A DNA stretch of 64,000 nucleotides from NCBI RefSeq assembly GCF_026210795.1, contig NC_089432.1, forward strand, positions 3,968,001 through 4,032,000. Reading direction: 5' to 3'. Both the position numbers and the translations under genes were made by a program. The stretch's first letter is position 1, and each line of letters starts with the position of its first letter. The notes under the pieces are model-generated. The model was given only the letters and a program-made list of their open reading frames with translations, did no database searches and had not been told where the DNA came from. This document shows positions 8,136 through 52,879 of the stretch, one piece after another. This stretch comes from Rhizophagus irregularis. Its lineage: Eukaryota.

Positions 8136-11100
8136 TTGTCATTTTTTTTATATTTTTATTTGACTTTTTTTCTTAATTTTATTGTAGTGACAACATGCAA
8201 AAAATCACACGCTAAGGAGTTGCCTTGTCTTTTCACAAATTTAGTAATCACATATGAGCAAAAAGGGTTGAGAAAATGTGAAACAAAACCATCACAAATG
8301 TGGCGGCATGCCGATACTAAAGCAGTAGCTAGCCGTCTCCTTCTTTACCATATTTTTATTCCAGAACTTATTCACCTTCAAACATCTTTAGAATTATATT
8401 CTTTATGTGAAAAACATTATAATCAAATTATATCTACTAATCACTTTTATCAGTTCCTTTTAAATCCAGATCAAACCACGTCTTTTCAAAATCAAAATAA
8501 AAGAAAGCGTCACAGCATTGACAATAGTGTATTGGATATTGGATTAAATATTACCAGCACCTGTGATTTTGGCGCCCAATTTCCAGAATTTGAAACTACT
8601 TGTGATTTTGGCGCTCAATTTCCAGAATTTGAAGCTAGTACTCGTGATTTTGGTATCCAAGTGTCTGGTGAATTTGAATATGTACAAACAATATCTAAAA
8701 TTCAACAATTGCAAAAACAATTAGAAAATCAAGGGCGTGAATTAATGGAATTATCAGGAAGATTAACTAAAGCTAATGAATATATAGTCAAAATTAATGA
8801 CCAGTATCAGAAACAATGCAAACAAAATGAAGCTCTTGCTCAAAAATGGGATTCTCGATTTAGCAATCAGCAAAAATGAATTGATTCTATTGTTGAAATT
8901 GCATTAGCTGAACGCAAAAGCGTATTTGATGATGTTGAATCATTAATTAGAAATAATGATAGGTTTTCGTTAGATCAAATTATGAAATTTACTTCTCAAA
9001 CATAGCTAAATGATCGTAATCAAGTTATTGTTAAGTTCATTGAAATTTTAACTCAAAATGATGGGAATACTAATGTTCCAAATCAAGAAAAACTTTTCAA
9101 AAGAGTTGTTGCTGTTGATGCAATATATGGATCGCGTCATGGAAAGTATGTATCAGAGATTAACCTTGCAGCATCAGCTATAAAATATTCTTTAGCACGC
9201 TCAAAAAAAGTTATTAATATTGATAATCATATTACAAGTGCAGGAGGTTATGTTCAATTTCAAAAATGGTTGGATGAGTTATCAAAAGAACAAGAATCAT
9301 TACCTAAAGGACTTTTATTTTTGGCTTTTGATAATGAACAAAGAGGACAAAAAAACTATCTAGATCGTGGATTCAATACTGTGATTTTTCATGTTATTAC
9401 TAGTTTTGTTGCATTTAATATGAAATCTCAAAATGAAATACAACATACTAATATTCCTTGGTTGCATAACTCTCTTAATCGACTTCAATATGAAGAACTT
9501 TTTGATCTTTCATCTCAAATGGAGGAGGAATTCAATAAAGAACTTCATAATTATCTTTCCAAGATCCTTGATCAGCTATGTATGGAAAAATTATCTTCAA
9601 ATAACAGCATTAATACTCTTATAGAAAGTATGATTTCAAATAATGGGTATGATAAATATTGTTCAAATTGTAATGAAAAAGACATTGAAAATCGAAAACA
9701 AGTTTGTCCAAAATGCCGATCATGATTACCTATACTTTCTGAATTACAAAAACAATATGCATCTGAATTATTAGAAATAAATTCACGAAACAAATTAACA
9801 AAACCAATTCTTTTTAAACCCCATATCTTTAAAGATGAATCTAAAATTGCTCCTGTTCCACAAATTAGTATGACTCAACGATCAGTTGCTGATGAAGGTG
9901 TTTGTATTCCTGAAATATATATCCCTGATCCGCTTAATATTAATCCTAATTTAATAGCAAATGTTGAAAAAGTTCTTCAGCATATAAAAAAAATATCAGG
10001 AATTCAGGATGGAACGCGTAAATGGGTAATAGTAACATGTGATGGAGTTCCATATCATCATGCTGTTAAACTCCAAGAAAAATTTCCTTGGTTGGTTCTT
10101 ATACACAGGTTGAAAAGTGAAAAATCAGGCACCAATCGGTCACCAATCAGGTAGCTGATTGGTGACTGATTGGTGCCTGATTGATGCCTGATTGGCATTT
10201 TCGCCAAATACCGTCACCAATCAGGCAGTTTACTAACTTTTGATCTAGTGATCAGAAAAAGATGAAATATAGCTCATTGGAATCGTCTCAACAAGACGAA
10301 TCTAATGGTAGTAAAATCGCATCTCTAGGATTGATAGTTAATAAAAAATTAAATAAAATATAAATAATACATTTTTATTTTTATATTTTACTTAATTTCT
10401 CATCAAGTATTAATTCTAGAGATGCGATTTTACTACCATTAGATTCGTCTTGTTGAGACGATTCCAATGAGCTATATTTCATCTTTTTCTGATCACTGGA
10501 TCAAAAGTTAGCAAACTGCCTGATTGGTGACGGTATTTGGCGAAAATGCCAATCAGGTACCACGGTCACCAATCAGGTACCTGATTGGTGACCGATTGGT
10601 GACTGATTGATGCCTGATTTTTCACTTTTCGACCTGTGATACCTGAACAATTGCATGAAGAAATGAATATGCTTTGGGCATTTGTTGAATTGAATTGGTG
10701 AGCTATATACATGTTAACATGTAACTAATGCATGTAGTGATTTTGAATAAATGATTTTATTTCACTTTTTTTTTATTTTAGGGAAATTGATCTCAAAAAG
10801 TTTGCAATACACCAAGGTTATCAAACTGAAAATCAACTTTCTTATTTTAAAAAGTGTAATGATCATCATAAAGCATGGGATTCAATTTGTAATATATATC
10901 GTGAAGCAATGTCTTTGGAGCTTATATGGCCATATGTAGAAAGCCAACCCAATCCAACAGTTGATGGATATAATCTTGGGTTAAAGAGCAACAGGATCTA
11001 ATTTATTAAATAAAATATGAACAGGTAAAAAAATATTTCATTGTAATTTAATTTTATTGTACAAAAAAATTTTATTTTCAATGAATTAATTACTCTTTAA

Positions 11101-11674
11101 TTTTTAAATATATATCATAGATATTTTATTATTTACAAGCAATTATAAATTATCGAACAGCCATCTGCACAAATTGTCCCTTGTTAAAAAATGCAGCACG
11201 AAGAGCATTTGCTTCAATTTGGTCTGCACGTCATCATCCTATTTATCGTTTGATAGAAATTGCAGATGAAGAACAATTGATGCGACTCCATCCAACTATA
11301 TATACGTGATCTTGTGGAAAAAAATAGTGTAATATCACGATCAGGTTTAATTAGCCAACATCAGGGATTAGATGCAATTTTAGAAGAGGTAAACAAAGCC
11401 TTAAAAACACTTATACCACCTGTTTCACAGCAGCGTCACTGGGAAATTGCTGCACGAAACTGCAAAAAGTTTCTCCAGGTATATCTATATATGCTATAAA
11501 TAAAATGCTAAAAATCTGTCAATAAAATAAAAAACTACTTTTGATACCTATATTTGTATTTTATGATTTATGCATTATTTATATTTTATATAATAAATGG
11601 TTGATTTTTTTTTAATTTTTCAACTACAAAAGTTACGTAACAATTTCTTTAAAGTAATTGGATATAATGATGTT
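8136..11674 (+). pseudogene. 5' part of a disrupted multi-exon gene (possibly transposase-derived, DUF6589-like); insertion target of the giant element
   Basis: ORF pieces 8136-8879, 9270-9725, 9870-10103 separated by in-frame stops; VTCDGVPY and LIPEQLHEEMN motifs once the MITE is removed; last exon ..LRNNFFKVIGYNDV ends at the TSD. Confidence 0.6.
10104..10638. mobile_element. Fold-back MITE with CAC-type termini (CMC/CACTA-like)
   Basis: TIRs CACAGGTTGAAAAGTGAAAAATCAGGCA / TGCCTGATTTTTCACTTTTCGACCTGTG; almost the whole element is an inverted repeat; ATA TSD at 10101-10103 and 10639-10641; removal restores LVLI-PEQLHEEMN. Confidence 0.85.
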
Positions 11675-11723
11675 AGTGGGATACCACATGCAATATAAAT
11701 TATATTGCATGTGGTATCCCACT
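11675..11723. repeat. Left terminal 49-bp palindrome (hairpin)
   Basis: AGTGGGATACCACATGCAATATAA-A-TTATATTGCATGTGGTATCCCACT, perfect 24-bp arms. Confidence 0.95.
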
Positions 11724-11739
11724 TATCCTAGATTATAGT

Positions 11740-11928
11740 ATCACATGTAATCTAAATACCACATATAATCTAAATACCGCATATGATCTAATTAACACAT
11801 ATAATCTGAATACCTCATATGATCTAAATATCACATATAATCTGAATACCACATATGATCTAAATAATGTAATCTAATTACCACATATGATCTAAATGAT
11901 GTGGTCTAAATACTACATATAATCTAAC
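11740..11928 (+). repeat. Subterminal tandem array of ~18-bp units (consensus ACCACATATAATCTAAAT)
   Basis: About 10 imperfect copies read directly; more copies ~12019-12066; mirrored at ~56360-56690. Confidence 0.9.
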
Positions 11929-14385
11929 ATTTTATTATTTCTTATATCGCTTTTACATTCTAGCTATATCTTTAAGCCTTTCTTGATATTTGTATTTTTG
12001 TGCTAATATACTTTTTATTACCACAATATAATCTAATTACCACACACATATAATCTAAATACCACGCTATTCTTCTTGTTTCTAAGTCATTTATTTGTTA
12101 AATTATACAATGGAGTTCTTGACCTTCTGTAGTTATTTGGATACCTGGTTTATATCGAGTACTGTGCCTCCTGCACCTGATTGGGTGCTGGATTTTATAT
12201 TGGAGTACTTACCTTTGCGCCTATTTGGTTGCCTTTCTAGATGTTGAAAAAAAGTGACGGGTGGCGCAGTAAATTTGCATTTAATTTCGGCTGACACTAT
12301 GCTATAATTCCGGCTGATCTTTTGGGCATGTGATTTGAGGATCCAGCCTGGCGCCATGGAACTATCGTGGAACTGGCAGGGAACTGTCATGGAACTGGTG
12401 AAGAACTGGCAGGAAGCTAGAGTGGTTCTATTAATTCACCAGTTTCAGATCACTTATATTGCCAGCTTGGATGCCAAGTTCTTATGCCCAAAGATCTGGT
12501 CAAAATTGTGAAATAGTGTTGGCCGAAATTAAGCGAATCTATACTGCGCCTTACTGCGCCATAGTCACGTGATACTGTTCCGGTGACAGAACACCCTCAC
12601 ATAGTTACGGGCTAGTGACGGGGATGTTCTGGGAAAGTTTCTGGAACCCAATATATATGCATCTGTGCCACATATTTTTTGTATCCATATATTTCCGAAA
12701 TCTTCCTAACACTCTCGAGCTCCAGTCTGGTGGACAGTTGGTTAGTAGAGAATTGGAGGTACAATATGTATTATCTTGGCCTGACCCATTTGATTACCAA
12801 AAAGTGCGCCATCATGCAACCTAATTATTGTCAGTACATGTATGCCTATTTCATGTCCAAAGTTGAAGATGCGATATGTATTATTGTGGCTGGCCCATCT
12901 ATACCATACCCGAATACATATCTAGAAAGATGAAGGCTTCTGCCAATATTTATATAATAGATTACGCAGTTACCTTCACTTTTAGATGTATATCCACTTG
13001 CCTTTCTTTTTCGATTCTTTATCTAAGTTTGCTATCGCTTCTTTTTTTCGCGTATTTGTCTATCCTAGATGTCATATATGTCCGAGCACATACTAGTGTT
13101 AGGGTAGCCTTCTGCCAATATTTTATATAATGATTACGCAGAAGGCTACCCTATAAAGAATGTATTTATTTGTGTCTCCGAAGTGTCCAAGAGGGGCCAG
13201 CCAACTTCGTATCTCTTTTTGGTATACCTCTATATTACGCGGAGGCTATACCATATCTGAGTACATATCTAGGAAGATGGGGGCTTCTTCCAATATTTTA
13301 TATAATAATTCCGAAGTTATCCCATCTAAAAGTATATACCCGTTTCCCTTTTATTTACGATTTGCTTACTGGGTTGCTATACGCCTCTTTTTACATCCTA
13401 TTAACAATGCTAAGGTGAAGGCTTCTGCCAATTTTTATATAATAGATTACGCAGAAGCCTTCACTTTTAGATATATATCCGGTTGCCTTTCTTTTTCGAT
13501 TCGTTTAATAAGTTCACTATCGTTTCTTTTTGCATCCACCGAAAAAAATAAATTAAACATTTCCGAATTTTATAAAGTAATATAAACATTTTCGAACTAA
13601 CACCATGCATACACCAACTAGTTTCGACCAAACCGATCACTCTGGCCCTCTCGTTTACTTCAACGGCGCCAGTCCCGATGAATATTTAAGTGATTCAAGC
13701 AGTTGTACTGATAATAAATCCGACTTGGGGTCAGATGATTATAATGACAATGAGTCTAATTATGAGTCGAATAATGAAGAAGCTACCGGTACCTCAACCG
13801 ACATTACCACGACTCCATCATTTCAGTACTCTTTAAGGCAGGAAAAGTTTAATGATAAATTTTCTTCTAAGGATTTGCTAAATGCCATTCGGAGGATTTT
13901 CTCATCACCACCTAGAGATATGTCAGATGAAAAAGGCTCATTGGAAGATCTCCCAATCTATTCATTCCTCTTTCCGAATGAAAAAGGGTCTAGTTTATAT
14001 AACGCTTACGATCGGGGTGAAGTGGAAAATAAATTGGTTATCAAAATCGACCAAGATGGTGATCATGCCCCCAAATTTTCCGTTGCAGATGACATTTCAG
14101 AAGTATATGGTTTACCCGGGATTCATGAATGTATTAATAGACAAAAGCCTTTAAGAGCTGTGATTGATATCGATGCGTCGCAAAAAGATATGGAAACAGC
14201 TGATGTCAAGGGGCAAGAAGTGTTCATTCGAATCTGTTGCTCTTTCATAAGAGCTTTGTACCGAATTCTTGACTGTGGTTGGGAAGACATTCTCAAAGGG
14301 TTAATAGTTACTACATCATCAGATTCTAGCAAATGTAGTTATCATATCTTATATGCACCGGCTCTCCTTATCGATCACCAAGAGC

Positions 14386-17300
14386 TAAAGCTCCGCATGA
14401 GCCAGCTTGAGCCGAGCTAAGGTCTGGCTTGGGCTTGGCTCGAAAAAATGTACTGAGCCAAGCCGAGCCGAGCCACAAATTCTTATGGCTCAGCTCAATA
14501 TGAGCCGAGCTATAATAATTCTTAGCTCGAAACAAATGAGCTGAGCCGAGCTTCAATAAATTTTGGCTCGAGCCAAGCTGAGCTCGAGCTACTATTTGTT
14601 TATAATTTGTATTTATAATTGACATAATTATGTTATTTATGTAGAATATTTTTTATTTATTTTTTATTTATTTATTTATTCAATTTTTATTTATTTAATT
14701 TAAAATCTAATTTAATTAATAAATTATAATTACCGGCACACATTTTTTCAACATTTATTTGTTAATTTCACTTCCGTCTGACCCTTTCCGTTATTCAGAC
14801 TACTATTATGAGCAATTATCAAGTCTACTATTTTACTTTATCATTAAGTTTTACCCTCCAACCTTTCATACATAATTACCGCTTCAGAATGTCCAACAAG
14901 CAACCGAAACCTAGTTATCCCGGGTTCATCTAAAGAGTCCGGCAACCTAAAGAAAATAGTAGAAACGTTAGTACTTTTCTTCTATATATTAAAAAAAAAT
15001 TACTCCCCAATTCCCGCTAACATATACTTGCACACATTCCAAATCCGGACCTTCCAAATCTAAAAAAAAGAATCAAAATGTTAGTAACGTTTCGTTAAAT
15101 TATAAGAAAAAAATTATTTCGATTACCTTCAAACATTAGAAGCCGGTCCGTCCCTACAAAAAAAGAAAGGTAAAGAACGTTAATAACGTTCTTGTAGTTC
15201 TTGTATTGAAAAACCCTCCCTTTCCTCACATTACCTCAAGAAGCTGTGTGCCGAAAGATTCGTTCCTACTTCCTACAAAAAAGAAAAGAACAGAACGTTA
15301 GTTAACGTTCTTATATTAAAAGAATTATTAATATAATATCTCCCCCTGTAACTTACCATTTTATGGAATTCCAAGTCCAGGAAAAAAATAAAAATAAAAT
15401 AAAAAATTTAACGGTATAATAAGATTGTTTGAACGAAAAAAAAATTTTTTTAAAAAAAAAATAAAAATGAATAACGGTTTAAAATAAAGAAACCGTTTAA
15501 CGAAAAAGGAAAAAAAATAAACCCGTTTTTTTTTAATAATAAACCTAAAAAATATACAAAGCGCTACAAATTTAATGTATAAAGTTGAAGGAAGGAAAAA
15601 AAAATTAAGATTATCGATCGGTAAATCGGATCGATAAGTCACATGTAAAGATGTACCGTAATATTAATTTTGACTGTGAAACTGAAAAGTAACTGTGCTA
15701 AACTAATTTTGGTAGCTAAACTAATTTTAGCTAAGCCAATTTTATTAATTTTCCGTGTCTTAATTATTTAAAAGTAGTTATCGTCTGTATGGAAAAAAAA
15801 AATTCGAGTTGATAATTTCAGTTATCATCCATGCAAAATAATCCAACTTAAGTCATTCTTTTACGGGTTCTTTTTTGACGGCTTTCTCTTAAGATAAAAA
15901 GATTTATATATCCGAATAATGTCCAACCCTTCTTCACCTATTCCCGTTCCCACTCCTATTGTTGAACTTGAAGCGAATACTAATTCTTCTTCAAGCAGCA
16001 AAAGATCCCTTGTTTATCAATTTTTTACTTATAAGTCTCCAAAATATTATTGCAACTATTGTCCTAAGAGTTTTTCAAACAAATCAACTTCTACGTTATG
16101 GCGTCATGTAAATAAACACCACCCAAAAATTGTTGCTGAAACTCAAAAACAAGAGGAAAAAATCGGTGAAATGGATAAGTTCGTAATTTCTGATCAAAAA
16201 GAAAATGTAAGTTTAATATTTATTTTAATACCATATTAAAGATCCTTATTATTAATATATCAATATAATTATATCATTTTTTTAGTTTAGCCAAAAAGGA
16301 TATAGAAAAAGATTGATTCGTTGGGTAGTTAATAATGATCAACCGTTTAATGTGACCGAAAATAGGGAATTTCGGGACATGATGACATTTATTCGACCAG
16401 GTATGCACATTCCCTCTGCTGATACTATACGACGAGATTTAACTGAAAACTTTAAAACTTCAAAAGATGTATTTAGACAACAACTGCAGGTTAATAACTA
16501 ATGTTTATATGTAATGATTTTATATTATATGGGTATTAAATCAATCCAAATAAAAACAATAGGAAGCACCCGGTCGCCTATCTTTCACAGTGGATGCTTG
16601 GACCAGCAAGAATCAAATTCCATTTCTTGGGATAAGTGTTCACTGGATAAATGACAAATGGGAATTAAAATGTACTACATTGGATTTTTGTATTTTATCA
16701 GGATCCCATACTGGAGCTAATTTATCACAAAGATTTTTAGAAGTCCTTCAAGAGTTTGGTATAACAACAAAAGTAAATGTTTAATTGTTTATTTACAATT
16801 TATATTTTTTTTCATAATTAACTAATAATTGTTTATTCTTTATTGTATATAGATTTTAGCAATTGGATGTGATAATGCTTCCAACATGGACGTGATGCTA
16901 GAAAACATTTCGCAGTCTTTAAAATTACAAAATATAATATTTGATCCAAATAATCATCGCGTCCGATGCCTTGCACATGTTATAAATTTAGGCGCAAAAA
17001 AATTAATAGATCATCTTTATGTGACTAATAAAATATCATATGAAGATGAAAATACCTTTGAAGTATCCGAAGATAATGATGATAATTTGAAAGATGCTAT
17101 ATATAAGGTAATAAATATTATTGCAAAAATACCAATTTTATAATTGCTAATTGTTTAATTTATTAAATTTAAAGCTTCGCAAGGTTATAGTAAAAATTAG
17201 AGCATCTCCACAGCGCCGAGAAAAACTTAAGCAACAATGTATTGCTGCTAATATTAAACCACTTGAACTTATCCCGGATGTGTCAACGCGATGGAATTCG

Positions 17301-18880
17301 ACTGATGACATGATAACACGTGCATTGGAATTAAAACAAGTAATATTAGTTTTATTATTTAAATTTTTTTAAAAAATTATTAAATTTCTAATTAATAATT
17401 AATTATACAGCCTCTTCATAATACCGCATCAGCTGATAAAGATTTAAGAAAGTATATACTTTCAGAAGAGGAATGGAATTGTATTTTAGAAGTACATGAG
17501 ATATTGCAGGTTAGTTATTTATTGATTAATAATATACACGAAAAATAATAAAAAAAATATTTTCAAGAAATTAAATCTTTTTTTATCTTTTTATTTACAG
17601 TGTTTTAAAAAGAGTACTAATTTTAGCACTGGACAGCAATATCCAACGTTATCGTATAGTGTTCCTATATACAACTATTTGCTAGATAAGCTTGAAGACG
17701 AGTATGAAAAAAAGGAAAGTGAAAAAGGCGAAGAGAATGAAGTTGTAGTAGCATTAAATGAATCAATCGAAAAAATAAAACAATATTATGCATTTACAGG
17801 TGCATTAGTTTATACAGTAGCAACAGGCAAGTTTATCATTATCATTATGTCTAATTTTATGATATTTAAATATTAAATTTATTTCTTATAATTTATTACT
17901 AAATAGTGATGGATCCTCGCCTTAAACTTCAATATTATAGGGATAATAAATGGGAGGAATCCTTTATTCAAGAAGCCAAAAAACAAGTTGTTGAATTATG
18001 GAAGTCAACGTATAAAGTAAATAGTGCAGATAATGAAGAATCACATGATGATGATGATGAAATTTTCGGTCATATATTTAAGAAACGGAAATTAAATAAT
18101 GATGAATTAAGTATATACTTAGATGAAAAAATAATTCCCGGAAAAACAGATATTCTTGCATGGTGGAAGGTATATAAATAATATTATTTATTATATTATT
18201 ATTTTATATTATTAATGTTATTAAATTAATTTTTATAGGCGCACGAAGTGGAGTACCCGAATTTGTCTAAAATGGCGCGTGATTACTTATCTATTCCAGG
18301 TTAATATATATATATATATCAAAATAGTAAATTACCGATCAATAAACTATTATTAATTATTTTATTTATATAATTTATTATTTTTATAGCCACTAGTGCA
18401 CCTGTAGAGCGAATTTTCTCAGGTGGCACCGATTTAGTTGTTCAAAAACGTTGTAGTCTTAAAGATGAATCAATTCAAAAAGTAATGTGTCTTAAAGGAT
18501 GGTGGAAATCGGGTTTTGGTGGAATAACTATTGTAAATGATTAATATAAAAGTAAAATTATATCTATTGTTAGTTTGATTATTAAATGTTAAATTTTAAA
18601 TAATAAATAATAAAATAATAAAATAAACAATATTTTATATCAAATTTTAGTAATTTAAAATCGAGCCAGCTCGAGCTATTTAAGCCAAGCTTATTATTGG
18701 CTCGAGCTTTTTTGAACTGATTTATTACCGGCTTGAGCTTTTTGAGCTGAGCCTATTACCGGCTTGAGCTCTTTTCAAGCTGGCTCGTGAGCTACGAGCC
18801 AATTTAATTATGGCTCAGTTCGGCTCAGCTTGAAAAGCTTGAGCCAGCTCACAAGCCAGCTCGGCTCATGCGGAGCTTTA
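14386..18880 (+). mobile_element. hAT DNA transposon nested in the primase-helicase gene
   Basis: TIRs TAAAGCTCCGCATGAGCC / GGCTCATGCGGAGCTTTA; 8-bp TSD CCAAGAGC (14378-14385, 18881-18888); subterminal GAGCC/GAGCT repeats. Confidence 0.95.
15919..18544 (+). CDS. Multi-exon hAT transposase with BED zinc finger
   Basis: CNYC..LWRHVNKHH, DAWTS, CDNASN, RCLAHVINL, DVSTRWNST, DPRLK, WWK..YPNLSKMARDYLSIP, ATSAPVERIFS; GT-AG introns between ORF pieces. Confidence 0.9.
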
Positions 18881-21800
18881 CCAAGAGCTTAAATCATTCA
18901 CCGAATTAGTATATACCTTAACTGGGGAAAAATTTGGCAAGTTTATTGATCAGAATCTATCTGGTCATAATTTTAACCTTCGCCTTATTGGTTCGGCAAA
19001 AAAAGGTCACGTGAAACGAATTCTTCAGTTTTCACTAGATAATGGGTGGAATGAACTCGATCACGTTAGAGTCCAACCACCTACTAACTTAGGCCTCGAA
19101 GTAAGACCCCGGCTACTTAGTGAAGAAAAAAATAACAACCCACTAAGGATAATTGTAAGTCAGGATGTATTACAAAAATGCGCGAACTTAGTTTTGCAAA
19201 AGCATTTTAACTATCTTAGGAATTGGACTATCGAAGAAAAGGATTCACAATACTTCGTATATTTTAACCGGAAAGCTTCACTAGAATGTCCACTATGTAA
19301 ACATATACATGACAAGGATCAGCGGTGGTTCGGACATGTATCTGCTAGTGGTACATTTATTGTGAAATGTTTTCGGCAAAATAGTGATGAACCTGGGGAA
19401 GTTTTTGAATGCGACCCATCTATTGCGGAAAAAATTCAGCAAAAAAATAAAAATATATCTTCGGCGCCTAGCAAGATAAAAGGCTTAGGTTTTCCTAAAG
19501 CCTTCTTAAAATTCCCATCTTGGGTTAAGTATAATGAGCCCCTTTCAGCGACAGAAATATATGACGAGAGATATGTAAGACCATTACCGGATGAAGGTGA
19601 TATCTATGTAGGATCGCCTTGGGAGACGGGAAAAACATATGTTCTCGAGCATCTTACTATATCTGACGATGTGAATTTGCTAGTATTATCTACGCGCCAC
19701 TCTTACTCGAATGCCGTCACTACAAGACTCAATCTCAAATCATATTGCGATATCGATAGTAATATAAATCTACCTGATCATAAGAGGGTAGTATGTCAGA
19801 TAGAAAGTTTACACCGTATTACTAATAATTGCAAATGTAATAAAAAATGTAAATGTTCTCCAAGCCAATATGATTTATGGCTTGATGAAATAGTATCTAT
19901 AATTGCTCAGGCACAAGGTCATTTGGCGGGTCAATCAATAGAGAAACTATATAAATTAATCCAAGAGGCTAGGCGTATTATCGTCATGGATAATGATCTT
20001 ACTGATCTAAATATCGAATGGATTAAGGCCCTTCGCAAGGATAAACTATTCTCAGTTATCCACAATACTTATCAACCACAGGAAGGGAAAACATTCCGCC
20101 TAGCCTCTAATAAAGAAACTGTGTTAGCCGAACTTTGGGATTGGGCTAGGAGAATATCTTCACTACCTTCTGATAAACGAACAAGTGCATCACTCATCTG
20201 TCATCTCAGAAAGGATGTGCAAGGGATCGTTCGTGCTCTCAAGACCGATTTTCCGGAATTGAGGATCAAAGAATATCATGGTAAATCTGATCCAGAAGAA
20301 AAGGCTAACGACTTCAGTAACGTAGAAGAATCATGGAGCAATGTTGATCTAGGTGCGTATACAAGTACTTTAAAAATAGGAGTATCTTGCACTAATCCCA
20401 AGTTCGAACGGGCGTTCTGCATCTTTAACAGTTATATAGAAACGAACGCTGGAACGAATCAGATGCTATTCCACATGCGGTGCATTAAAGATTATATATG
20501 CCATATCGAACAAAGATCTTCTAACGTCCCCATTACAGAAGATGGGTTATTTCGATGGTTGTTGAATGCTAAACGTGAATGCCTCCCCCGAGAACTCCAG
20601 AATAGAGGAATATTCCCAGATGTAGATTCTATTATCCGGAATAAGGACGTACCAACTGTTCGATTATGGGTGGCATTCATGTTGGAAAAATTCCGTTCCC
20701 GAAGATTATTTGGTTGGAGGATGGTTGATTTTCTCCGAAATGCAGGTATGGTAATTTCTATCATAGAACTTATGCCTAAACCTAAAGATAATACGATATC
20801 ATTATCCCAGACAGTAAGGGTGAGTTCATCTATCATTAAAGCAGAAGAAATCTCAGATATATCAAATGCCCGTATTCTTGATCATGAGATAGCTGAGGTT
20901 TTGGAAAATAAGCCGAAGAAGACTTTAGAGGAAATGCAATCTTTAGACCGGCATCATATTGTAGAATGTTATGAGATTCCGCCTGAATCATTGACCGAAG
21001 AATTCATATCGAAGTATGGGAATTATAATCATATGAAATGGTTTAGAGCTTATAGACAGTTACGGGACGCTGGCACTGATAATGAAACGGCTGTTGAGGC
21101 TATTACCCGTAAAGATTACAGAGAGGATAGACTCGCAACCGTGACCCGAGCTGAGAGACATAGTATCTGCTTGGAGTTGCTAAGAAATTGTACACCCGCT
21201 AAAGACGTTGACGATAGAGCACGATATAAAGCTGATGATGTTAGAACGCGCATGAACTCTCCTAAATCGATATTATATCTCCAGGATTTAGTACCCAAAA
21301 TGGCTCGAGTATTTGATAATACAGATGCATCGCGCAGAGCTAAAAAATCGGGATTGAAAACAGATCGGGCAAAACTTGGTTTATTAAATGCATCACTTTA
21401 CGCAACTTATGGATTAAAATTTAAGGCTATAGATAAGAATTGTAGACATTACCACCTAGTAGGTTCATTTGATAGTAAAGATGCTCCTAGATTACCTTCA
21501 TATCAAACGGGCGAAGAAATTTATTGGGTAAATGGTGAAGATACTCGGTATGGGTATAGTAAACTCCCACCCGATGAATTGATATTAGATAATTTTACTA
21601 GCTCTAGCAAAGTGGATAATACGCAAAATACAGAAGATATTCAGGACTTATTTGATATATGCTAATACCATTCGATTACGTATCAGGTAAGTGAAGGCTT
21701 CTGCCATTTTTATATAATATAATTCCGCAGAAGCCTTCATTTTTCGGCATATATTATTAAAAAAATATCTCTAACTTTGCGTCACTCTGGCCAGGATATA

Positions 21801-21913: not shown

Positions 21914-22350
21914 CTAATCCCCAAATAGACCTAGACCTATATCCTCATCATCTGACTCAGAAACCGGAGCTTCATAGATTCTGGGTTGAAGGGGTCTAGC
22001 CACATCACTTAGCTCGAAAATTGGAGCTTCAGGGATTCTGGGTTGAAGGGATTCATTCCCATCACCCAGTTCGAAAATTGAAGCTTCAGGGATTCCGAGT
22101 TGACGGGTCTCAGCCTTATACTTCTGCCTCATTCGATAATTCAGTGCATGAAACTTTGCAGAATATTTGGAACAATATTTGGCGCAATACCTGAATCAGC
22201 ATCAGTAGGAAATCTACAAATAAGGCAGGGTCTTTTTTTCATATTTTTTTCATATAATTTCCAGTGCCTTGCACAGCCAGTAATACGAGTACTGACTCTT
22301 CCACAAATGGAACCATCTCTCTTGATATGCGGGCAAGTAACACGATCCAT
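21914..22350 (-). pseudogene. Small Cys/His Zn-binding protein with repeated acidic C-terminus (apparently frameshifted)
   Basis: CPHIKRDGSICGR..GCARH and CLIC motifs; adjacent ORFs 22141-22350 and 21914-22132 with an LQPRIxEAP repeat. Confidence 0.45.
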
Positions 22351-23294: not shown

Positions 23295-24443
23295 ATGTCT
23301 GCAATTACAACCAAGTTCGTTACAGACCACCAGCTTACCAATGAGATGAGTATCGAAGAGCTCAGTCAGTATGCGCCAGAAATGCGTGACCTCTTGGGAG
23401 ACGATAGAGAGAAAAGGCGCCAGGCCCGTAATCGTCTTCAAAAAGGGTATAAATTTAGCAAAGAACAGGCATTTGCATTGATTCCTGACCAGAGAAATGG
23501 GCGGTATATAAGTCAAGTACCGATCCTAGAGGAATTAGGATTAGCGCCTTCAGAAGCTGAAGTTAATATAAGCCTAGTATCTGAGAATACCCCAGAAGGG
23601 GAGACTATTAAAGAAATAGCTCAGCGCATTGTTCGGGATAATCTTAGTGAAAGAAATGTAAAAACGATATCAAGAACCTTAGTCGAAACGGCCTCTGATC
23701 CTATCATTGCCTCATCACGACTCTCCAGGCTTCAAAGAGAATTGCGGAAGCTTAACACCTCGGAGGCGATAATCTCTGCCACCAAGATTTCGGAGATAAC
23801 CAGAGCATCTAATAAAATCCAACAGAAGCGTACTGAGCAACGTAAAAATGAAGGACTCCATTATCCAGACCACTTCTCGTTAGAATCGGTTAAGGAACGG
23901 CTAGATTTATATGTTGTGTCTAACACACCCGATAAACAGGCCCTAGCTGATGTAATGATTATGCTCTGTATCCGCCCTACTGAAATTAAAAACTTGCGCA
24001 TAGCAAATGGGGGCGTAACGGGATACGCAAAAAACCGAGGCCAACAGGATGTTCCTCGGGTGTTCAGATCGCTGGAAAAAAATGAGGAGCGAGCAAGGCA
24101 ATTGCTTACATGGATTCAGGAAGCAATTTCTTCCAGACAGTTAAGAGATCCAGGAAAACCTGGATCGACATACTTAAGTTCGTTTCTGAAAAAAGAAGAA
24201 TATATTCCTAAACCTTATGAGCCATTACTCCCTAGTTCCTTGCGCAAATTAGGGGCGGTATTTGCTTTGGTAGTCCATGGGCCTAAAAATCCGTCAAAAG
24301 CCAATACTTATGCCAGTGAAGCCCTTCGACATTCGCCGAATAACCATGCTTCTCCATCTGATAGATATACTATAGTTAATTTCAGAAGGAGGGGGCAACC
24401 TTATGATCAAGCAAAACCATTCTGGATTTCTGATGAAAACTAA
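23295..24443 (+). CDS. Tyrosine recombinase / telomere resolvase (protelomerase)-like protein
   Basis: Candidate catalytic residues in YR order: MLCIRPTEI (R), GYAKNRG (K), PSSLRKLGAVFA (R), EALRH (H), SDRY (Y); intact 382-aa ORF. Confidence 0.65.
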   Translation: MSAITTKFVTDHQLTNEMSIEELSQYAPEMRDLLGDDREKRRQARNRLQKGYKFSKEQAFALIPDQRNGRYISQVPILEELGLAPSEAEVNISLVSENTPEGETIKEIAQRIVRDNLSERNVKTISRTLVETASDPIIASSRLSRLQRELRKLNTSEAIISATKISEITRASNKIQQKRTEQRKNEGLHYPDHFSLESVKERLDLYVVSNTPDKQALADVMIMLCIRPTEIKNLRIANGGVTGYAKNRGQQDVPRVFRSLEKNEERARQLLTWIQEAISSRQLRDPGKPGSTYLSSFLKKEEYIPKPYEPLLPSSLRKLGAVFALVVHGPKNPSKANTYASEALRHSPNNHASPSDRYTIVNFRRRGQPYDQAKPFWISDEN

Positions 24444-25474: not shown

Positions 25475-25975
25475 ATGATAGAGGTTTATTTTTTATATTT
25501 GGATATTATATATGCCATAATAAAAATGGTATTCGTGAATTGTGTAGTCGAAGAAAATATTCCTATTGAGGCATCAATTGATACGAGCGCCAATGTAAAT
25601 TGCATTAGCCAAAAACATATTGGTGAATTAGGAATTACATATCACAGTGAAAGCAATCGTATTGAGACTCCGGATGCATCCTATTCTACATTAGGAAAGG
25701 TTGATCTGCATATCGGCTTTAATGATAGCAAGAAACATAAAAGCACACCCGTTGAATTCATAGTTCTTGGACTGGAGTGGTCGGGACCTGATTTAATTTT
25801 AGGAGGACCTTGGTTTCAAGAAAATGGTGCAACTTTGGATATATGCAACTCAAATCTATTATTTGACAATAATTTTGCGATCCCATTCAAAGAAGTAGAC
25901 TATATTTCGACATTATCTGATAGTCAAATCCGAGCTATGACGGATTTTCCCAGTCCAACCTATAGTCCGGAGTGA
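25475..25975 (+). CDS. Retropepsin-like aspartyl protease (second copy; likely start at MVFVN)
   Basis: ASIDTSANVNCIS and DLILGGPWF motifs. Confidence 0.75.
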   Translation: MIEVYFLYLDIIYAIIKMVFVNCVVEENIPIEASIDTSANVNCISQKHIGELGITYHSESNRIETPDASYSTLGKVDLHIGFNDSKKHKSTPVEFIVLGLEWSGPDLILGGPWFQENGATLDICNSNLLFDNNFAIPFKEVDYISTLSDSQIRAMTDFPSPTYSPE

Positions 25976-26037
25976 TCGTGTATTACTAGCCTTATTTTTT
26001 TCTGATCGAAAGGTATTCTAACTATATAAATAAAGCA

Positions 26038-26463
26038 ATGCATACAGACAATTTACTTGATCTTCTTCCGCCGGAGATAATATCATTTATTCTAAAGTAT
26101 CTTCCAGAACAGGAACTAAAGAATTCTCGCAGTATAAATAATATATGGGAAAGAGAGGCGAATCTTGAATGGCACAAAAGGATGGAATTTTTATTTGGGA
26201 GAATAGTTCAAGGCAATTATACAGTAAAGGAATATTATTCGAAACTGAAAGAGTGTAATTTAAGCAAAGACTATCCAGAATGGCTTTTTAAAAATCTATT
26301 CATCAGAGGATTATCACCTGAGAATAAATTTAAAGTTCGTTTGGATGGGCTATTACTACTTTCGTTAGATGAGATAGTGGATGGACAATTAGTACTTTCG
26401 TTAGATGAGATAGTGAAAAGGCTTAGTTCGGAGCAGGCCGAAGGTGCTTTGCATGATCATTAA
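26038..26463 (+). CDS. F-box protein fused to a Gag capsid-like (MHR-region) segment
   Basis: [23 protein letters not shown] (F-box) followed by [30 protein letters not shown], which aligns with the element's Gag. Confidence 0.75.
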
Positions 26464-26510
26464 GCTTAGAGAATTTATTTTTTCGATTAAAGATACAGCA
26501 TATATTATTC

Positions 26511-27593
26511 ATGGCATATTCAAGTATTTTTAATATACCAGAACTATTAGAGCAGGTTCTATATTTCCTAGCAGTAAATAAGACATTGTATCCTGCCCTA
26601 TTTGTTTGCCGGCTTTGGTACAGATGCGGTGGTCCTATTTTATGGAGACGCATTGAGCTAAAGGGGAACGAAGTAGACGATAGATCTCGATTGGAAAGAT
26701 TTTTTAAAATAGTACGTGGAGGAGGAAGACCAGTTTATAGCTCAAAACTAACTCATCTCAAAATATCGGACTATCATTCACTTTCAAATAAAAAAATCAA
26801 AGGCATTATGCATACTTTCCAAAATATAATACATTTAGATTTTGGAGGGAGTATGAAGCCTGAGTCTATTGGTAAAGTTCTAAAGCTAATAGCAGAATCA
26901 TACCCGAATTTGAAGTATCTTAATATATCCGCTTTATGCAGTGGATTTGGAAATGATAAAGGCCTATGTGCAATCGCGAATTCATGTTATAAAATAGAAT
27001 GTCTAAATATTTCTAGACGTACAGAGTTTTCTGAAACATCAATTTGTAATGTTATTCGTTCTTGCCCAAGGCTCCAGCAACTCGACCTTAGCTTTTGTCA
27101 TATTACCGATATAACTATCAAAGAAATTACTGGTTCATGTGTTAATTTAAAGTACCTCAATTTGGAAGGGTGTAATAATATTAGCAAAGAAGCCGTAGAT
27201 CAGCTCATTTCACTTAATCCAAATATTCATGTCGAGAATTTTGTGCCGATTCGGGTACCTCCCCAAAATAATGGAGCTTTAGATGTAATCCATGGACTTG
27301 CAAGGCAACTGGGAATACCACATGATGAGCCAAGAGATGTTGCATCCTTAAATAATTTTATCAATGACGAATTATCAAGGAGATTGAGTGAACGCTGTAT
27401 TCTAGCTAGAACATCGCTCCGGAGTGGTGGTCGGTTATATAACACCCGGCATAGTGTTAATAATAATCAGAATTCGGTCATATCTCAGATACACCGGCAA
27501 CCTAACAGACGATCGCCAAGGATTAATTTCGGTAGAATACTAGCCGATCAATTAGAATGGTGGTACTCTACCGATCTAACTAATCTGGAGTAG
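26511..27593 (+). CDS. F-box/LRR (RNI-like) protein carrying a Gag-derived segment
   Basis: [17 protein letters not shown]; LRRs ([27 protein letters not shown]); [33 protein letters not shown]. Confidence 0.8.
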
Positions 27594-27715
27594 TGATCGT
27601 CAGTTCGGAAGAATTTTTTTTGCTGAGCCACAATGCATGTACTCATGTACGACAGAAACAAGCGATGATTAACCTATTTTTCCGATTGAAAATATTTAAT
27701 CAATCTACTAGCAAA

Positions 27716-28411
27716 ATGTCAGATGATGAGATAGATACCGAGATAGAAGAAGGCTACGATGAATTTATCAAAGAATATGGATCGAGATATGAATGGGATA
27801 ATGAAAGGAATCCTGATGAGTGGAGATACTGGGACGACCTTTTTTGCACAATCAAAACCTACTGGGGGACAAAGGCAGTTAGGAATTGGAAAGAGAAAGC
27901 GCTTAAGCAATTTGTACATAGTCTGCCCAATGTAAGAAATCCATCATCATTATTCCGTGTATTTATACATTCCGATGCTTTCTATCTTCCACATATTTTG
28001 AGTCTGATAGAATTGCCATATTATCCGCATAAACTTCGATGGGAAATATGGCCGGAAGGTATTGAGAAGTTCCAATGTAGATTGTTTATTCAAGGTGAAG
28101 AATCAATAGTGGATTACTGTTTAAAGGCGAAGAAAAGTAATGATATCATCAAACTCTGTAAAGGTCATTTTAGAAGTGAATTCTATAGTGGATTAACACG
28201 AGAAAATATGAGATGTATTGCAAAAAATATTTATTATCGTGAATTGGTAGAAATGCTTATTCAGGCAAAAAAAGAATCAGTTACTGGTATTATAACTGGG
28301 TTTAAAGATTATATTAGTCAGTCCGGTATTGCTAATCTGAATGGGGTACAATACTTATTGAGAGGTATACATTGGATAACTAACCCGAGCGAAGGTAGTC
28401 CGGAGCAGTGA
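27716..28411 (+). CDS. Hypothetical intronless protein flanked by ~85-bp direct repeats
   Basis: ATG at 27716 (MSDDEID..); repeats at 27581-27668 and 28396-28478. Confidence 0.6.
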   Translation: MSDDEIDTEIEEGYDEFIKEYGSRYEWDNERNPDEWRYWDDLFCTIKTYWGTKAVRNWKEKALKQFVHSLPNVRNPSSLFRVFIHSDAFYLPHILSLIELPYYPHKLRWEIWPEGIEKFQCRLFIQGEESIVDYCLKAKKSNDIIKLCKGHFRSEFYSGLTRENMRCIAKNIYYRELVEMLIQAKKESVTGIITGFKDYISQSGIANLNGVQYLLRGIHWITNPSEGSPEQ

Positions 28412-28987
28412 TCACCAGCTCGGAAGAATTTGCTGAGCCTCAATACATGTACTCATGTGCGACAAAAATAGGCGATCACTAGACAGGGTTCGTGTAACAT
28501 TAATTTTGCATATACATTCGAAAAGAAAACATATTAACCTTTATTCTTTATTTTTCCCAAACAAACATGAGAAAAATATGAAAGAGCGTCTAGTTGCAAC
28601 ACAGGACCAGCTCTAAAAGTAAATATTAACGTCAAAAGCATATGTTATGAAGGGCTGAGGGACTCACATTTTCGAGATCGCCAGGCGTAAGACCAACTAT
28701 GCGTCTCTCCGGTAGATCTCCATGTGAAAAGGTTTGAAAATTCTGTTTACATGTGCTTTCATAGAACTCTTGGCATCAGACGACAATACTAATTACGCCT
28801 CATACCTCCTTAACTTCGGCTTGGCGCTCTTTTTCCCAGCAAGATATAAAGCATGTAGGGGTATGTGGAAGTTCAGCCAACTTTCCGCAAAAATTTACCT
28901 GTAAGTGCTTCGCTAAGGTATGTATATACCAGAAGTTATGTATGTGTGGGAATGAAAATCTCACTATGGGCTTTGTATTTAGGAAAG

Positions 28988-29347
28988 ATGCCTTCTATTC
29001 GTCTTAACTGCTTTCTTCGTGGTGGAACCGTTAATAACATTTTCGATGTAGAAATTGATAATAATTTGTCTGTTGGTGCTCTGAAAGATCAGATCAGAAA
29101 TGTCCGGCAAGACTTACGTCAAGAAAACTTCGATCTATATGAAGTTAATTTTTTTCAGCCCAATTTTTCCATAGTCTCTTCTGTAAACAGTATTGCGATT
29201 AGACAAGGAGTGTTTATGGTTCCACATAGAGAAATTTCTAATTATTTCTCTACCTTGCGCATCAATACTCTCATAGAAAGCCCACCTTACTTTCAAGAAA
29301 ACGGTGAAAGGGGTGTTATTCACGTCCTCATATACCCTCAAGATTAA
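28988..29347 (+). CDS. Crinkler (CRN) N-terminal ubiquitin-like domain protein
   Basis: LNCFLRG..IFDVEI...SVGALKDQI...LYEV...IHVLI. Confidence 0.65.
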   Translation: MPSIRLNCFLRGGTVNNIFDVEIDNNLSVGALKDQIRNVRQDLRQENFDLYEVNFFQPNFSIVSSVNSIAIRQGVFMVPHREISNYFSTLRINTLIESPPYFQENGERGVIHVLIYPQD

Positions 29348-29591
29348 TAATTATTTTTATATCATGTAATGCGATCCATTCGCAATTTTTATGTATTGTA
29401 GGCCGGGTTCCGGCAACATTTTATTTCATAAATAAAGTATTATTATATGAGTAAGCGGGTCACGTGTATGTCTGTACTACATAAAAACCTATATTAACAC
29501 TTACGTTCCCACCAGAAATACAACTCTATTTTTTCTCCGAACGTAACACTATTTTTATCCGAGCCAATTATCCCTATAAAAACGTAACGCT

Positions 29592-30892
29592 ATGTCAACT
29601 GTCACTCTCAGTTGTTTGGTCGTAGGAGAAAACCCTTATGAAAATGCTTTCAACGTAAAAGTTAATAAAACAGAGGCGGTTAGTGAACTCAAGGACGCTA
29701 TCAAGGAAAAAATTGATGATAATGTTAAGGCAAAAGACCTCAAGCTATGGAAGGTCGACATTTCCTTCGAAGAAGAAAACGAAAAACTTAAGCTCGTCAA
29801 CACAAAAGTAAACGTTAATATCAAGGAGGAGCTTGGTGGCGTGGAACTACTTCCACTTTCGAAGATTAGCAAACACTTTCCTTCCCAACCAGCCGACGAG
29901 CACATACATATAATCGTACAGCGTCCTGTTGAAACGAAAGAAGTCCACTGTACCGCAACGTATGGGCGTAAGAGTGCGAATTTTCAATGGACAGTGACCC
30001 GAGAAACGGTGACGTTGGAAGGTTTTAAGAAGAAGCTTTGTGAATATTTAACCTTTCCGGATGGGACAGAGAACGAGCACATCGTAATAAGTCGTGTGAT
30101 AGGTGGCGCTGGTTTGAAGAGAAAAATTTCGACAGGTAAAATGCGTAGAAAATCAGATTCAAGTTCCCAGAGTTCAACGGTAGAAAGTGATACGGTTGAG
30201 ATCGTGACAGAGCGTAAAGTTATTCAGTTTTCTGCCGATGAGGACTTAATGAGTATTATCTGGACTACTAACCCCAAGGTGGATCTGGAAATTGTTGTGG
30301 ATACGTGTAAGTACTATCTAGATATTTAGGATATTCACGTGCCGATTCTACCAAATGTCTGATCAGTTAATTTATGCATGACTGTTTTGTAGCGCAACAA
30401 CCTTTCTCTTCGTATACTTTCCCAAAGATGAAGGCAGTCTTCGGCTTGAAGGCAGATGATTATAACGGATTATCAATTTTTGATGGAGGTGTCAAGGATA
30501 CTCCGAAAGAGATTCGAAGTTTGGTTATAGAAGAATTATTGAGATTACACAAAACATCCCAACACATCACTAGCGCCAATGAAGCCACTCGTTGCGAGTT
30601 TATTTCTCGTATTATTTACGGTGTTGCATCAATCTTTGATGGTGAGGTGAAAGTCTATCCCCAATACGAAATTTCTGGAAGCCATGGCAAAGGACCAGTT
30701 GATTGTGTCATAAAAGTGGGAAATACAATCATCACAGTTACCGAGGCGAAAAAAGAGGACATCAATCAAGGTATTGCACAGAATGCAGTCCAACTGCAGA
30801 CATCCATCCAGCGCAATCCTAAAAAACGTAGTTACGATACAGCAGGTTTACATTATGTTATGCGCAGTAAGACGTCATTGAATTACCAGTAG
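29592..30892 (+). CDS. Crinkler-family protein, intron-containing, with a PD-(D/E)xK-like C-terminal domain (3' end possibly truncated)
   Basis: LSCLVVGENP..AF.V...VSELKDAIK..LKLWKV..HIHIIVQ; intron ~30307-30392; GPVDCVI..VTEAKK. Confidence 0.8.
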
Positions 30893-34847: not shown

Positions 34848-35700
34848 TATGACAAGTGTGATTAAATCTCCACTAGGCGGTGGTTTTGAGGGTACTTATG
34901 AGGAGCATATCGAATATATTGGTATGCGTTGTATCTTCGATACTGAAACTCCGTCTGAATGGAGAAATAGGATTTGGGATCGCCTAATGTATTTTCGAAA
35001 TAAAAAATATTATACATTTGGTGAGAAAGACTGCTTTTATGCTCGCAAAGCATCATCACATCTTGTTGATGGACAAAAAATCTATCCATTTTGTGGAATG
35101 GCTATCTGTTACTCATGCAATGAACTTATATATCTTGGAATAGAACACTTGTCAGTTGGTGTGAGATGTGTTTATAACGCATTGGAGGGTAAGTTCATAA
35201 CTGAGAAATTCAGAGACATTAGCTTTAATGGAACACATTGGGGTATGTATCAACATTGGGCCACTGCTTGTACCGGAAATAGGTTTTGTAAACTAAATTT
35301 CAAAGAATACATGGAAATGAAACAGCGGATCCCATTGGACAAGTGGATGAGCTTCCATCAATATGATTTGCAGATAAATCAATTTGGTAAATTCAGGCGC
35401 AGAGGACCATACACTAGTATAATTGATAATAACTATATCCTAAAAAATTTTGGCATTTATGCTGAAGAAAAACTATATAGTTATGCTTTATGGTTAGAAA
35501 ATGTCAGCAGAAGGATTAGGCGCATTAGACAGAGATGTGCTTTTCTAAGTGCTCCAAATTGCAAGAGTAATACAAGCGAACTATATATCTCTTCTCTCTT
35601 TGCAAAACAAAATAACTTATTACCCCTAAACTATAATCTCAATCATCCAAAAGGCACTGCAATGAGGTTGAGAAATGGGACAGTAATCAAGTTTGTCTAA
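34848..35700 (+). CDS. Hypothetical intronless protein with CYSC motif
   Basis: Long ORF; no family recognised. Confidence 0.55.
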
Positions 35701-39621: not shown

Positions 39622-41122
<1,501 letters not shown>

Positions 41123-41146: not shown

Positions 41147-42817
<1,671 letters not shown>

Positions 42818-45337: not shown

Positions 45338-45566
45338 AGAAAGGACATAGTCCTATTACCTCCTCACAGAAGAAGAAATCAAAAACTCGCAAGTCTCGTA
45401 AGGTAAAAGATGCGGAAACAACCGGTCCCTTTGGGATCCCCCTTTAGCAGATCCTTCTGGGATCGCATCAGTTCCTATTTTCAAGAAGGAAAAGCAAAGT
45501 TCAAAGTCCCCACCACAGGACGAACAATCCCGCTTAGAAAAAATCATTGAGAAAATTATTGAGAAG

Positions 45567-46208
45567 GTGCTTAATGAAAAGTTTGGTACTATCACGGCCC
45601 TCCTTCACTCACAGAACGATAATTCTAAAACACTGGCCGATTCTGAAGAGGATGAATTCATTGATGTTCCTATGGAGATAGATTTTGTACAGAGAAAAGA
45701 TCCCGCCACAGATGTTGCCACTGTTAAATGTAGAATTAAGCGTCTAGTGATTCCGGCAGGTACAGTTGATCCTGGTGCTAATTTTCCAATCATGTCTGAG
45801 GATATAGCCAAACGATCAAAGCTAGAAATTGATACAAAAGAAAAACATGATCTCAGAGGCATTGCTACTACTCCTACAGAGTCGCTTGGAATTGTTAGGA
45901 ATGTTCCAGTAAATTTCGCTCCTAGATGTACTATATACGCCGATTTTGCAGTCGTCAAGTATCCTAAGCTGATGCTTATTTTACCCAACACATTGCTTGA
46001 TAAATATAACTATGATTTACTTGCATCGAAGCGAGAATTAAGACTAGAATGTAATGGCAAGGAATTTTTTATCCCAATTAATATGCATAAGGTCAAGAAC
46101 AAGCTTGAGGTGAATTGTGCGACCACTATTCCCGAATGTGATGATTCCTCGACCCCAGACAAAATTTCGCAGGACTTAATCGAAGATGGTACATTTAAAA
46201 AAAAGTGA
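45567..46208 (+). CDS. Retropepsin-like aspartyl protease downstream of Gag
   Basis: GTVDPGANFPIMS, LRGIA...SLG, DFAVV...LILPNTLL. Confidence 0.75.
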   Translation: MLNEKFGTITALLHSQNDNSKTLADSEEDEFIDVPMEIDFVQRKDPATDVATVKCRIKRLVIPAGTVDPGANFPIMSEDIAKRSKLEIDTKEKHDLRGIATTPTESLGIVRNVPVNFAPRCTIYADFAVVKYPKLMLILPNTLLDKYNYDLLASKRELRLECNGKEFFIPINMHKVKNKLEVNCATTIPECDDSSTPDKISQDLIEDGTFKKK

Positions 46209-52410: not shown

Positions 52411-52879
52411 GGTGTTAGTTCGAAAATGTTTATATTACTTTATAAAATTCGGAAATGTTTAATTTATTTTTTTCGGTGGATGCAAAAAGAAATGATAGTG
52501 AACTTATTAAATGAATCGAAAAAGAAAGGCAACCGGATATATATCTAAAAGTGAAGGCTTCTGCGTAATCTATTATATAAAAATTGGCAGAAGCCTTCAC
52601 CTTAGCATTGTTAATAGGATGTAAAAAGAGGCGTATAGCAACCCAGTAAGCAAATCGTAAATAAAAGGGAAACGGGTATATACTTTTAGATGGGGGTAAC
52701 TTCGGAATTATTATATAAAATATTGGAAGAAGCCCCCATCTTCCTAGATATGTACTCAGATATGGTATAGCCTCCACGTAATATAGAGGTATACCAAAAA
52801 GAGATACGAAGTTGGCTGGCCCCTCTTGGACACTTCGGAGACACAAATAAATACATTCTTTATAGGGTAGCCTTCTGCG

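Follow-up and report, generated by a model that had tools for sequence, protein, structure and literature searches.

An integrated 45-kb element of Rhizophagus irregularis with palindromic ends and a predicted protelomerase-fold enzyme

Terminal palindromes and boundaries of the insertion

What kind of DNA molecule leaves a palindrome at each of its extreme tips when it integrates into a fungal chromosome? The question is raised by a large element within a 64,000-nucleotide stretch of the Rhizophagus irregularis genome (hereafter the window), for which the initial annotation had claimed palindromes with 24-bp arms at both tips, abutting a target site duplication (TSD). These structures were confirmed to the base. 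The terminal features, including the terminal inverted repeats (TIRs), are as follows (unstranded unless a strand is given):

11670–11674: left TSD copy, 5 bp, ATGTT
11675–11723: left terminal palindrome, 24 + 1 + 24 bp, probable opened hairpin telomere and resolvase target
11675–13645: left TIR, 1,971 bp, including the shared 5′ region and the first 11 codons of the helicase gene
11739–11927, plus strand: subterminal repeats of about 18 bp built on a TACCAC box, which is also present in the palindrome arm
52370–56752: right TIR, split by a hAT element; the same 11 codons begin the PolB gene
56500–56688, minus strand: mirror copy of the subterminal 18-bp repeats
56704–56752: right terminal palindrome, 24 + 1 + 24 bp
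56753–56757: right TSD copy, 5 bp, ATGTT

Each palindrome consists of two perfect 24-bp arms around one unpaired central base (A on the left and T on the right, plus strand), and each is the exact reverse complement of the other. The earlier description of the palindromes as perfect therefore holds for the arms, but not for the one-base odd center, which is missing from most related termini. Both palindromes lie flush with the direct repeat ATGTT, whereby only 5 bp gave a match among duplication lengths from 3 to 9, and the element itself starts with AG and finishes with CT. The longest palindrome arm in five shuffles of the whole window was 9–12 bp versus 24 bp at the termini, and the two termini were the only palindromes with arms above 16 bp in the 64-kb window. 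The tip DNA had a folding z of about −11, with none of 200 shuffles equally stable, and a hairpin energy of −24.9 kcal/mol. Since both palindromes belong to the same TIR, they count as a single observation. The TIR copies differ by 16 substitutions and two small indel sites over 1,971 bp, with the hAT insertion of the right copy set aside. All 16 substitutions are transitions spanning 11991–13643, and the outermost 316 bp carries none.

The junctions with host DNA were followed in contigs of four sequencing runs. The left one was bridged by at least 31 letters on each side in two of them (X2, whose sample is the possible source of the window, and, from a separate study, X5), and in the remaining two a left-flank contig entered the palindrome by 29 letters; the right junction was traced 29 letters inside and 38 outside in all four. 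Moreover, a contig of run X9 joined both flanks with a single, slightly different target copy, as an empty paralogous site would. The palindrome-ended element is a genuine insertion, and its junctions are no assembly artefact.

Gene content of the element

The bounded element comprises 45,078 bp, of which 38,179 bp remain when its two nested hAT transposons are subtracted. Its GC content is 37.1% versus 27.6 and 27.3% in its flanks. Its genes and other internal features are:

13605–14385, plus strand: 5′ part of a primase-helicase gene, truncated by a hAT insertion
14386–18880, plus strand: hAT-type transposon inside the helicase gene, with an 8-bp duplication and a zf-BED match
18881–21665, plus strand: 3′ part of the helicase gene, with a herpes origin-binding (UL9-like) domain (PF02399, E 2.7e-16)
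21914–22195, minus strand: small Cys-rich ORF, syntenic in the relative L040
22466–22969, plus strand: ORF with a weak 2C_adapt match (below cut-off), syntenic in L040
23220–23294, plus strand: telomere-like boxes immediately upstream of the resolvase start
23295–24443, plus strand: gene for a predicted protelomerase (telomere resolvase)-fold protein, 382 aa, intact, with R227, K246, R317, H346 and Y358
25475–30892, plus strand: cargo of aspartyl-protease-like, F-box, F-box/LRR, two Crinkler N-terminal-domain and nuclease-like ORFs
40340–41098, minus strand: A32-family packaging ATPase, open frame (PF04665 above cut-off; 277 homologs)
41147–42817, minus strand: integrase of the rve (DDE) type with a nuclease-like domain fused at its C-terminus (PF00665, E 1.2e-9, above cut-off)
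42867–46208, plus strand: coiled-coil/gag-like and aspartyl-protease-like ORFs, weak matches
48653–52410, minus strand: family B DNA polymerase with exonuclease, asfarvirus-like (PF00136/PF03104; three frames)
52880–55283, minus strand: second hAT transposon with an open 628-aa transposase ORF and an 8-bp duplication, inside the right TIR

The copy in the window is decayed: its helicase gene is split by the hAT insertion, the integrase gene has an in-frame stop near its 5′ end (42749–42751), and the family B polymerase (PolB) gene is broken by one frameshift and one in-frame stop. The first part of the helicase gene encodes motifs that we take to be primase-like; a primase domain gave no database match there. 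The helicase (13605, plus strand) and PolB (52410, minus strand) genes start in opposite TIRs; their first 11 codons are identical, and both genes are directed towards the interior of the element. Because the TIR gives both the same upstream region, they are probably driven by the same promoter. The best match of PolB among solved structures was the 8YWG group (E 1e-85, versus 1.5e-14 for Pol delta), 8YWG being linked to African swine fever virus (ASFV) in PMC11417396. With this as its closest solved match, PolB is not a protein-primed enzyme. Nor did the Pfam scan of the element's ORFs match any protein-primed polymerase family.

No capsid or adenoviral-protease family was matched among the ORFs scanned (42 and 31 by Pfam and 25 by PHROGs, some of them outside the element), whereby jelly-roll capsids often escape such profile libraries. 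ORF 34849–35700, tried as a capsid candidate, gave sub-threshold noise only in the ESM Atlas. Likewise, neither an HUH Rep nor a Holliday-junction resolvase family was matched among the ORFs scanned with Pfam and PHROGs profiles. The integrase frame runs on into a zinc-finger and nuclease-like domain (41147–41620) with matches to homing-endonuclease PHROGs, and this domain could be a candidate for nicking a hairpin. The gag-like label of the ORF in 42867–46208 is our presumption. The two Crinkler N-terminal-domain ORFs and the nuclease-like ORF lie within 28859–30892, beside the F-box genes. The two nested hAT transposons differ from each other, the second having palindromic subterminal repeats at 55232–55273.

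Predicted fold and catalytic residues of the resolvase

A structure model of the ORF 23295 product, built from 108 sequences (pLDDT 92.9 for residues 97–365, pTM 0.86), was compared with 48,161 solved chains. Ranks 1 to 4 were all occupied by protelomerases (TelA with Z 15.1, a TelA mutant with 15.0, TelK with 13.8 and ResT with 8.9), and no other chain reached a Z of 8; lambda Int scored 7.8, Cre and XerH 6.2 each, and poxvirus Topo IB 5.7. The alignment with TelA covered 256 of 269 residues at an rmsd of 3.8 and that with TelK 257 residues, at a structural identity to the protelomerases of 10–13%. According to the model, the predicted enzyme has a protelomerase fold over its linker and catalytic domain; a common fold is no proof of its activity. 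An earlier, low-confidence model, poor in the catalytic part, had given a Foldseek ranking with Cre above TelA, none of the matches being significant. In the ESM Atlas, the ResT-TelK family (PF16684) appeared in 18 of 30 matches with a score of 0.95 and phage integrase in one, at a shared-feature count of 155 out of 256, under the guide value of 170.

Profile comparisons were less clear than the structural comparison. A divergent profile of nine rows matched a set of 11 protelomerases at a probability of 71.5 over 201 columns with all five catalytic residues paired, TelK R275, K300, R383, H416 and Y425 standing opposite invariant residues. The 108-row profile reached 45.9 and a close-family profile 0.4. 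In a size-matched control with subsets of five sequences, the protelomerases obtained probabilities of 0.1–2.2 versus 0.8 for five ordinary tyrosine recombinases, i.e., no separation. The ORF 23295 protein had no significant Pfam, NCBIfam or PHROGs match; the PF16684 HMM missed it together with 17 homologs, so that the link to this family comes from the language-model search of the Atlas only, and sequence searches of solved structures and phage records returned nothing relevant. Comparisons with 13 reference enzymes by hmmsearch and single-sequence hhalign stayed mostly at the decoy level. Overall, sequence evidence taken alone would give weak grounds for naming the protein a protelomerase.

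The catalytic residues are conserved in most of the 108 homologs: R227 in at least 90%, K246 in 98%, R317 in 90%, H346 in 82% and Y358 in 80%, the misses being mostly gaps. Ordinary tyrosine recombinases carry an H-x-x-R motif; at the position of its His, 106 of the 108 rows have S, K, R, E, Q or a gap. The dN/dS of the resolvase was 0.12–0.23 in four of 12 loci, two of these four being near-identical; seven others had broken frames and one was saturated.

Related termini and TACCAC boxes

Termini related to those in the window were seen in contigs of four studies. Contigs covering the whole palindrome in 48 nt (runs X10 and X15) have two other letters and lack the central base; their left-arm change was listed directly, and the mirror change is deduced from the letter count. 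A 50-nt contig (X15) has four other letters and two mirrored insertions, again without the central base. In at least three loose ends (X6 at 56717; X15 at 56716 and 56729), the right half is the reverse complement of the altered left half, the one at 56716 being a two-contig consensus with one mismatch. Most related termini are even-centered; one other gap-free end, with three differences, lies on a different 7-kb contig. Across the related termini, the 5–6 bases that separate the outer TACCAC box from the core ATATAA|TTATAT vary, box and core being fixed, and in other copies unrelated flanks start directly after the terminal CT. Relatives thus keep the palindrome by compensatory changes, as the initial annotation had proposed to check: the changes are mirrored in both arms and the core is left unchanged. 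Mirrored arm changes of this kind are what the copying of a single duplex through a hairpin would give, and they would be difficult to account for if the palindromes were binding sites only.

The search for the exact palindrome in metagenome contigs gave no match, with an odd-centered pattern that would miss even-centered relatives. Degenerate telomere patterns were likewise absent from the viral contigs and prokaryote genomes searched. A palindrome arm of at least 11 bp was found in none of 80 metagenome loci, these being short gene-centered contigs that stop before the element end. The resolvase and the palindromic ends were seen together in one complete element only, the copy in the window.

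Besides the palindrome arm, the TACCAC box is found in the 18-bp repeats next to the termini and again directly before the resolvase start. At least two boxes were present in the 90 bases before the resolvase gene in 24 of 45 metagenome loci versus none of 1,016 other windows (of 80 loci retrieved, 49 were analyzed, 45 of them with enough upstream DNA; the loci are mutually related and therefore not independent). In 12 loci (L022, L032, L038, L040, L041, L042, L050, L055, L058, L062, L063 and L069), which represent more divergent subfamilies, another repeated motif stands in place of the TACCAC boxes. If the boxes are resolvase sites, the telomeres of such motif-swapped subfamilies should differ in step. 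One of these loci, L040, a relative at 50% identity, keeps the order of helicase, small Cys-rich ORF, 2C_adapt ORF and resolvase on a contig that does not include an end.

Proposed life cycle and alternative explanations

Most probably, the palindromes are hairpin telomeres in opened form, and the free element is a linear, covalently closed molecule whose ends would be made by the predicted protelomerase that the element encodes. The initial annotation, which named no enzyme, had suggested a linear free form with covalently closed or fold-back ends and an integrated palindrome that is an opened hairpin or a resolvase target, and this reading gains support from the protelomerase-fold gene, the ASFV-like PolB and the mirrored termini, from which the free molecule is deduced. 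In the proposed cycle, PolB and the primase-helicase would copy the hairpin-ended linear DNA into mirror-image telomere junctions. The resolvase, directed by the TACCAC boxes, would then cut each junction at the fixed core and reseal it into two hairpins in the manner of TelN, TelK and ResT; the boxes before the resolvase gene probably serve the autoregulation of this gene. A hairpin offers no 3′-OH to a DDE integrase. Read outward, the integrated strand crosses the palindrome axis and ends 24 bases further on in CT. The integrase would expose this CT-3′ end either by nicking the hairpin after CT, which is the simplest route, or by cutting a replicated junction there. Strand transfer into host DNA would then take place with a stagger of 5 bp; as the fold-back is copied during repair, each end of the element would be left with a full two-armed palindrome. 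As the full palindrome would itself be a resolvase substrate, the provirus may be released by telomere resolution, which is the least supported step of the cycle. The window copy may be a poor substrate because of its odd unpaired center, in comparison with the even N15 site.

Three other mechanisms and an artefact have to be weighed against covalently closed hairpins. The free form might be circular or consist of brief intermediates only, with the recombinase resolving dimers or acting elsewhere and the palindromes serving as binding sites for the integrase or helicase. Consistent with this, no strand-switch (fold-back) joint was seen in eight comparisons with assembled Logan contigs of sequencing runs (contigs show presence, not absence), the size-matched profiles do not split the ORF 23295 protein from ordinary tyrosine recombinases, and the first model placed Cre, at no significance, above TelA. 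However, in the confident model the match to protelomerases extends over the whole domain and is about twice as strong as that to integrases, the His of H-x-x-R is replaced in nearly all rows, and the mirrored insertions and substitutions are difficult to reconcile with mere binding sites, which makes this explanation unlikely. Self-priming as in parvoviruses or AAV, where a 3′ fold-back primes synthesis, no covalent closure takes place and nicking and copying restore the palindrome, is more improbable still. It would account for the very stable tip hairpin and the lack of a protein-primed polymerase, and mirrored variation fits any hairpin copying, but it would explain neither the conserved protelomerase-fold enzyme nor the telomere boxes at the gene of this enzyme, and the HUH/Rep family was not matched in the ORFs scanned, although a missing profile match is no proof of absence.

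Resolution in the style of poxviruses or asfarviruses would involve cruciform concatemer junctions cut by a host or helper Holliday-junction resolvase, the odd base being a flip/flop mismatch. The asfarvirus-like PolB and the unpaired center of the window copy point in this direction; most related termini lack such a center, the junction-resolvase family was not matched in the ORFs scanned, and the element has a protelomerase-fold gene of its own, so that we regard it as very improbable. Finally, fold-back chimeras are a known source of palindromes, and the tips might have arisen in assembly or from chimeric reads. The palindromes nevertheless lie inside an exact 5-bp duplication, short-read contigs of several studies contain the same junction sequences, and other copies end in variant palindromes at the same CT; the recurring junction contigs and variant termini effectively refute an artefact.

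Comparison with known systems

The element resembles Mavericks/Polintons in its long TIRs, AG...CT-type ends, short target duplication, rve integrase beside an A32 ATPase and multicopy state. It differs from them in lacking a protein-primed PolB as well as any capsid or adenoviral-protease match in the ORFs scanned, in its protelomerase-fold gene, and in its duplication of 5 bp in contrast to the 6 bp given for vertebrate Mavericks in PMC8097293. Its tips are palindromic, whereas the same source describes repeated (AG)3/(AGT)2 end motifs of Mavericks for protein priming. By the definition taken from PMC8097293, the element is not a Maverick, as it has a 5-bp duplication and no protein-primed polymerase. 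‘Maverick’ expansions have been reported in Glomerales (PMC11952901, PMC8647823), and the present family may be among them.

Among the precedents named by the initial annotation, N15-type telomere resolution is the closest, grouped with that of Borrelia and the phaeoviruses; poxvirus/asfarvirus junction resolution and parvovirus self-priming stand further off. With N15, phiKO2 and PY54 and with the hairpin replicons of Borrelia and Agrobacterium, the element shares the predicted protelomerase fold, the catalytic residues and a palindromic target of about 50 bp. As in the N15-like phages, a target-like sequence lies right upstream of the resolvase gene; the telomere site of N15 and phiKO2 is located about 165 bp upstream of the protelomerase gene. 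The N15 site is described as an even palindrome cut with a 6-nt stagger, and the N15 and Borrelia resolvases as cutting and resealing replicated telomere junctions (PMC13236599). In contrast, the present element is eukaryotic and integrating, its enzyme is compact (382 aa), and it bears the full palindrome at each end, where those replicons have a single internal telRL site. In its workings it would combine the hairpin replicon of N15 or Borrelia with an integrase and ATPase of the Maverick type.

Phaeoviruses (EsV-1, FsV-158 and the Ectocarpus EVEc) are likewise eukaryotic integrating DNA viruses with a telomere resolvase, and fold-back Nanopore reads at their palindrome are reported in PMC13236599. 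The same source gives them an internal telRL and proposes excision by a tyrosine recombinase via attL/attR and a circle; for this reason, the element is not a phaeovirus-type provirus. In the element, the DDE integrase and target duplication act at the telomeres, and within its 45 kb no capsid gene was found.

A further likeness concerns ‘Fundsbetavirus’ and the polB genes of Rhizophagus irregularis, which share the asfarvirus-like PolB and many dispersed copies. Asfarvirus-like polB was reported at 15–33 copies per genome in this fungus (PMC10640383, PMC7017919), and the multiple copies were interpreted as traces of giant-virus infection (PMC10640383, PMC7017919, PMC5294986). The main text of PMC10640383 does not contain the terms integrase, inverted repeat, telomere, hairpin or polinton. 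The published polB copies may belong to the palindrome-ended family; the present findings offer an alternative interpretation of these copies, and of some of the ‘Maverick’ expansions in mycorrhizal fungi.

A wider proposal can be put forward only tentatively: the family might constitute a new eukaryotic self-synthesizing class, in which a DDE integrase would open and insert hairpin telomeres and a protelomerase would later cut the junctions, freeing a hairpin-ended replicon at the cost of a chromosome break tolerable in a multinucleate fungus. Under this proposal, the dispersed asfarvirus-like polymerases would in truth stem from this Glomeromycota-wide family, which would also transport Crinkler and F-box genes. 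These two gene families are expanded in mycorrhizal symbionts, and the element, carrying both as cargo, could help to spread them. If the hairpin reading is correct, bacterial-style hairpin telomeres and a protelomerase would operate in a fungal mobile element, and a retrovirus-type integrase would have a route for inserting DNA without free ends. For arbuscular mycorrhizal fungi, from which dsDNA viruses are known as traces only, this would also give a replicating dsDNA element a testable identity. The compact resolvase with its target of about 48 bp could moreover serve as a tool for making covalently closed linear DNA. No published pairing of a protelomerase with Rhizophagus or a Polinton-type integrase was found in a literature search that was thin on subscription journals. 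The component facts are in print separately, their combination being unreported as far as this search reached, and the family may already be catalogued without the hairpin mechanism.

Distribution of homologs and minor observations

Among the best 120 of 356 homologs of the ORF 23295 protein, the named organisms were all Glomeromycota, and the nearest full-length sequences were from Rhizophagus, which points to an arbuscular mycorrhizal fungus as the host. A second homolog search added Geosiphon, Ambispora, Acaulospora and further Cetraspora. None of the viral contigs searched encoded a relative of the resolvase, the ATPase or the helicase. Six divergent resolvase homologs from environmental contigs (P0203, P0237, P0247, P0262, P0267 and P0199), at 33–38% identity, are mostly compact (268–348 aa, one of 440 aa) and keep the catalytic residues. 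They may mark related elements in other hosts.

Two minor repeats lie outside the element. To its left, a MITE-like non-coding fold-back element of about 535 bp (10104–10638) has 183-nt arms that are 94% complementary, outer arms of 72 nt and 11-bp subrepeats. On the opposite side, a long AAT-type microsatellite occupies 63419–63640 in host DNA, partly inside a short ORF.
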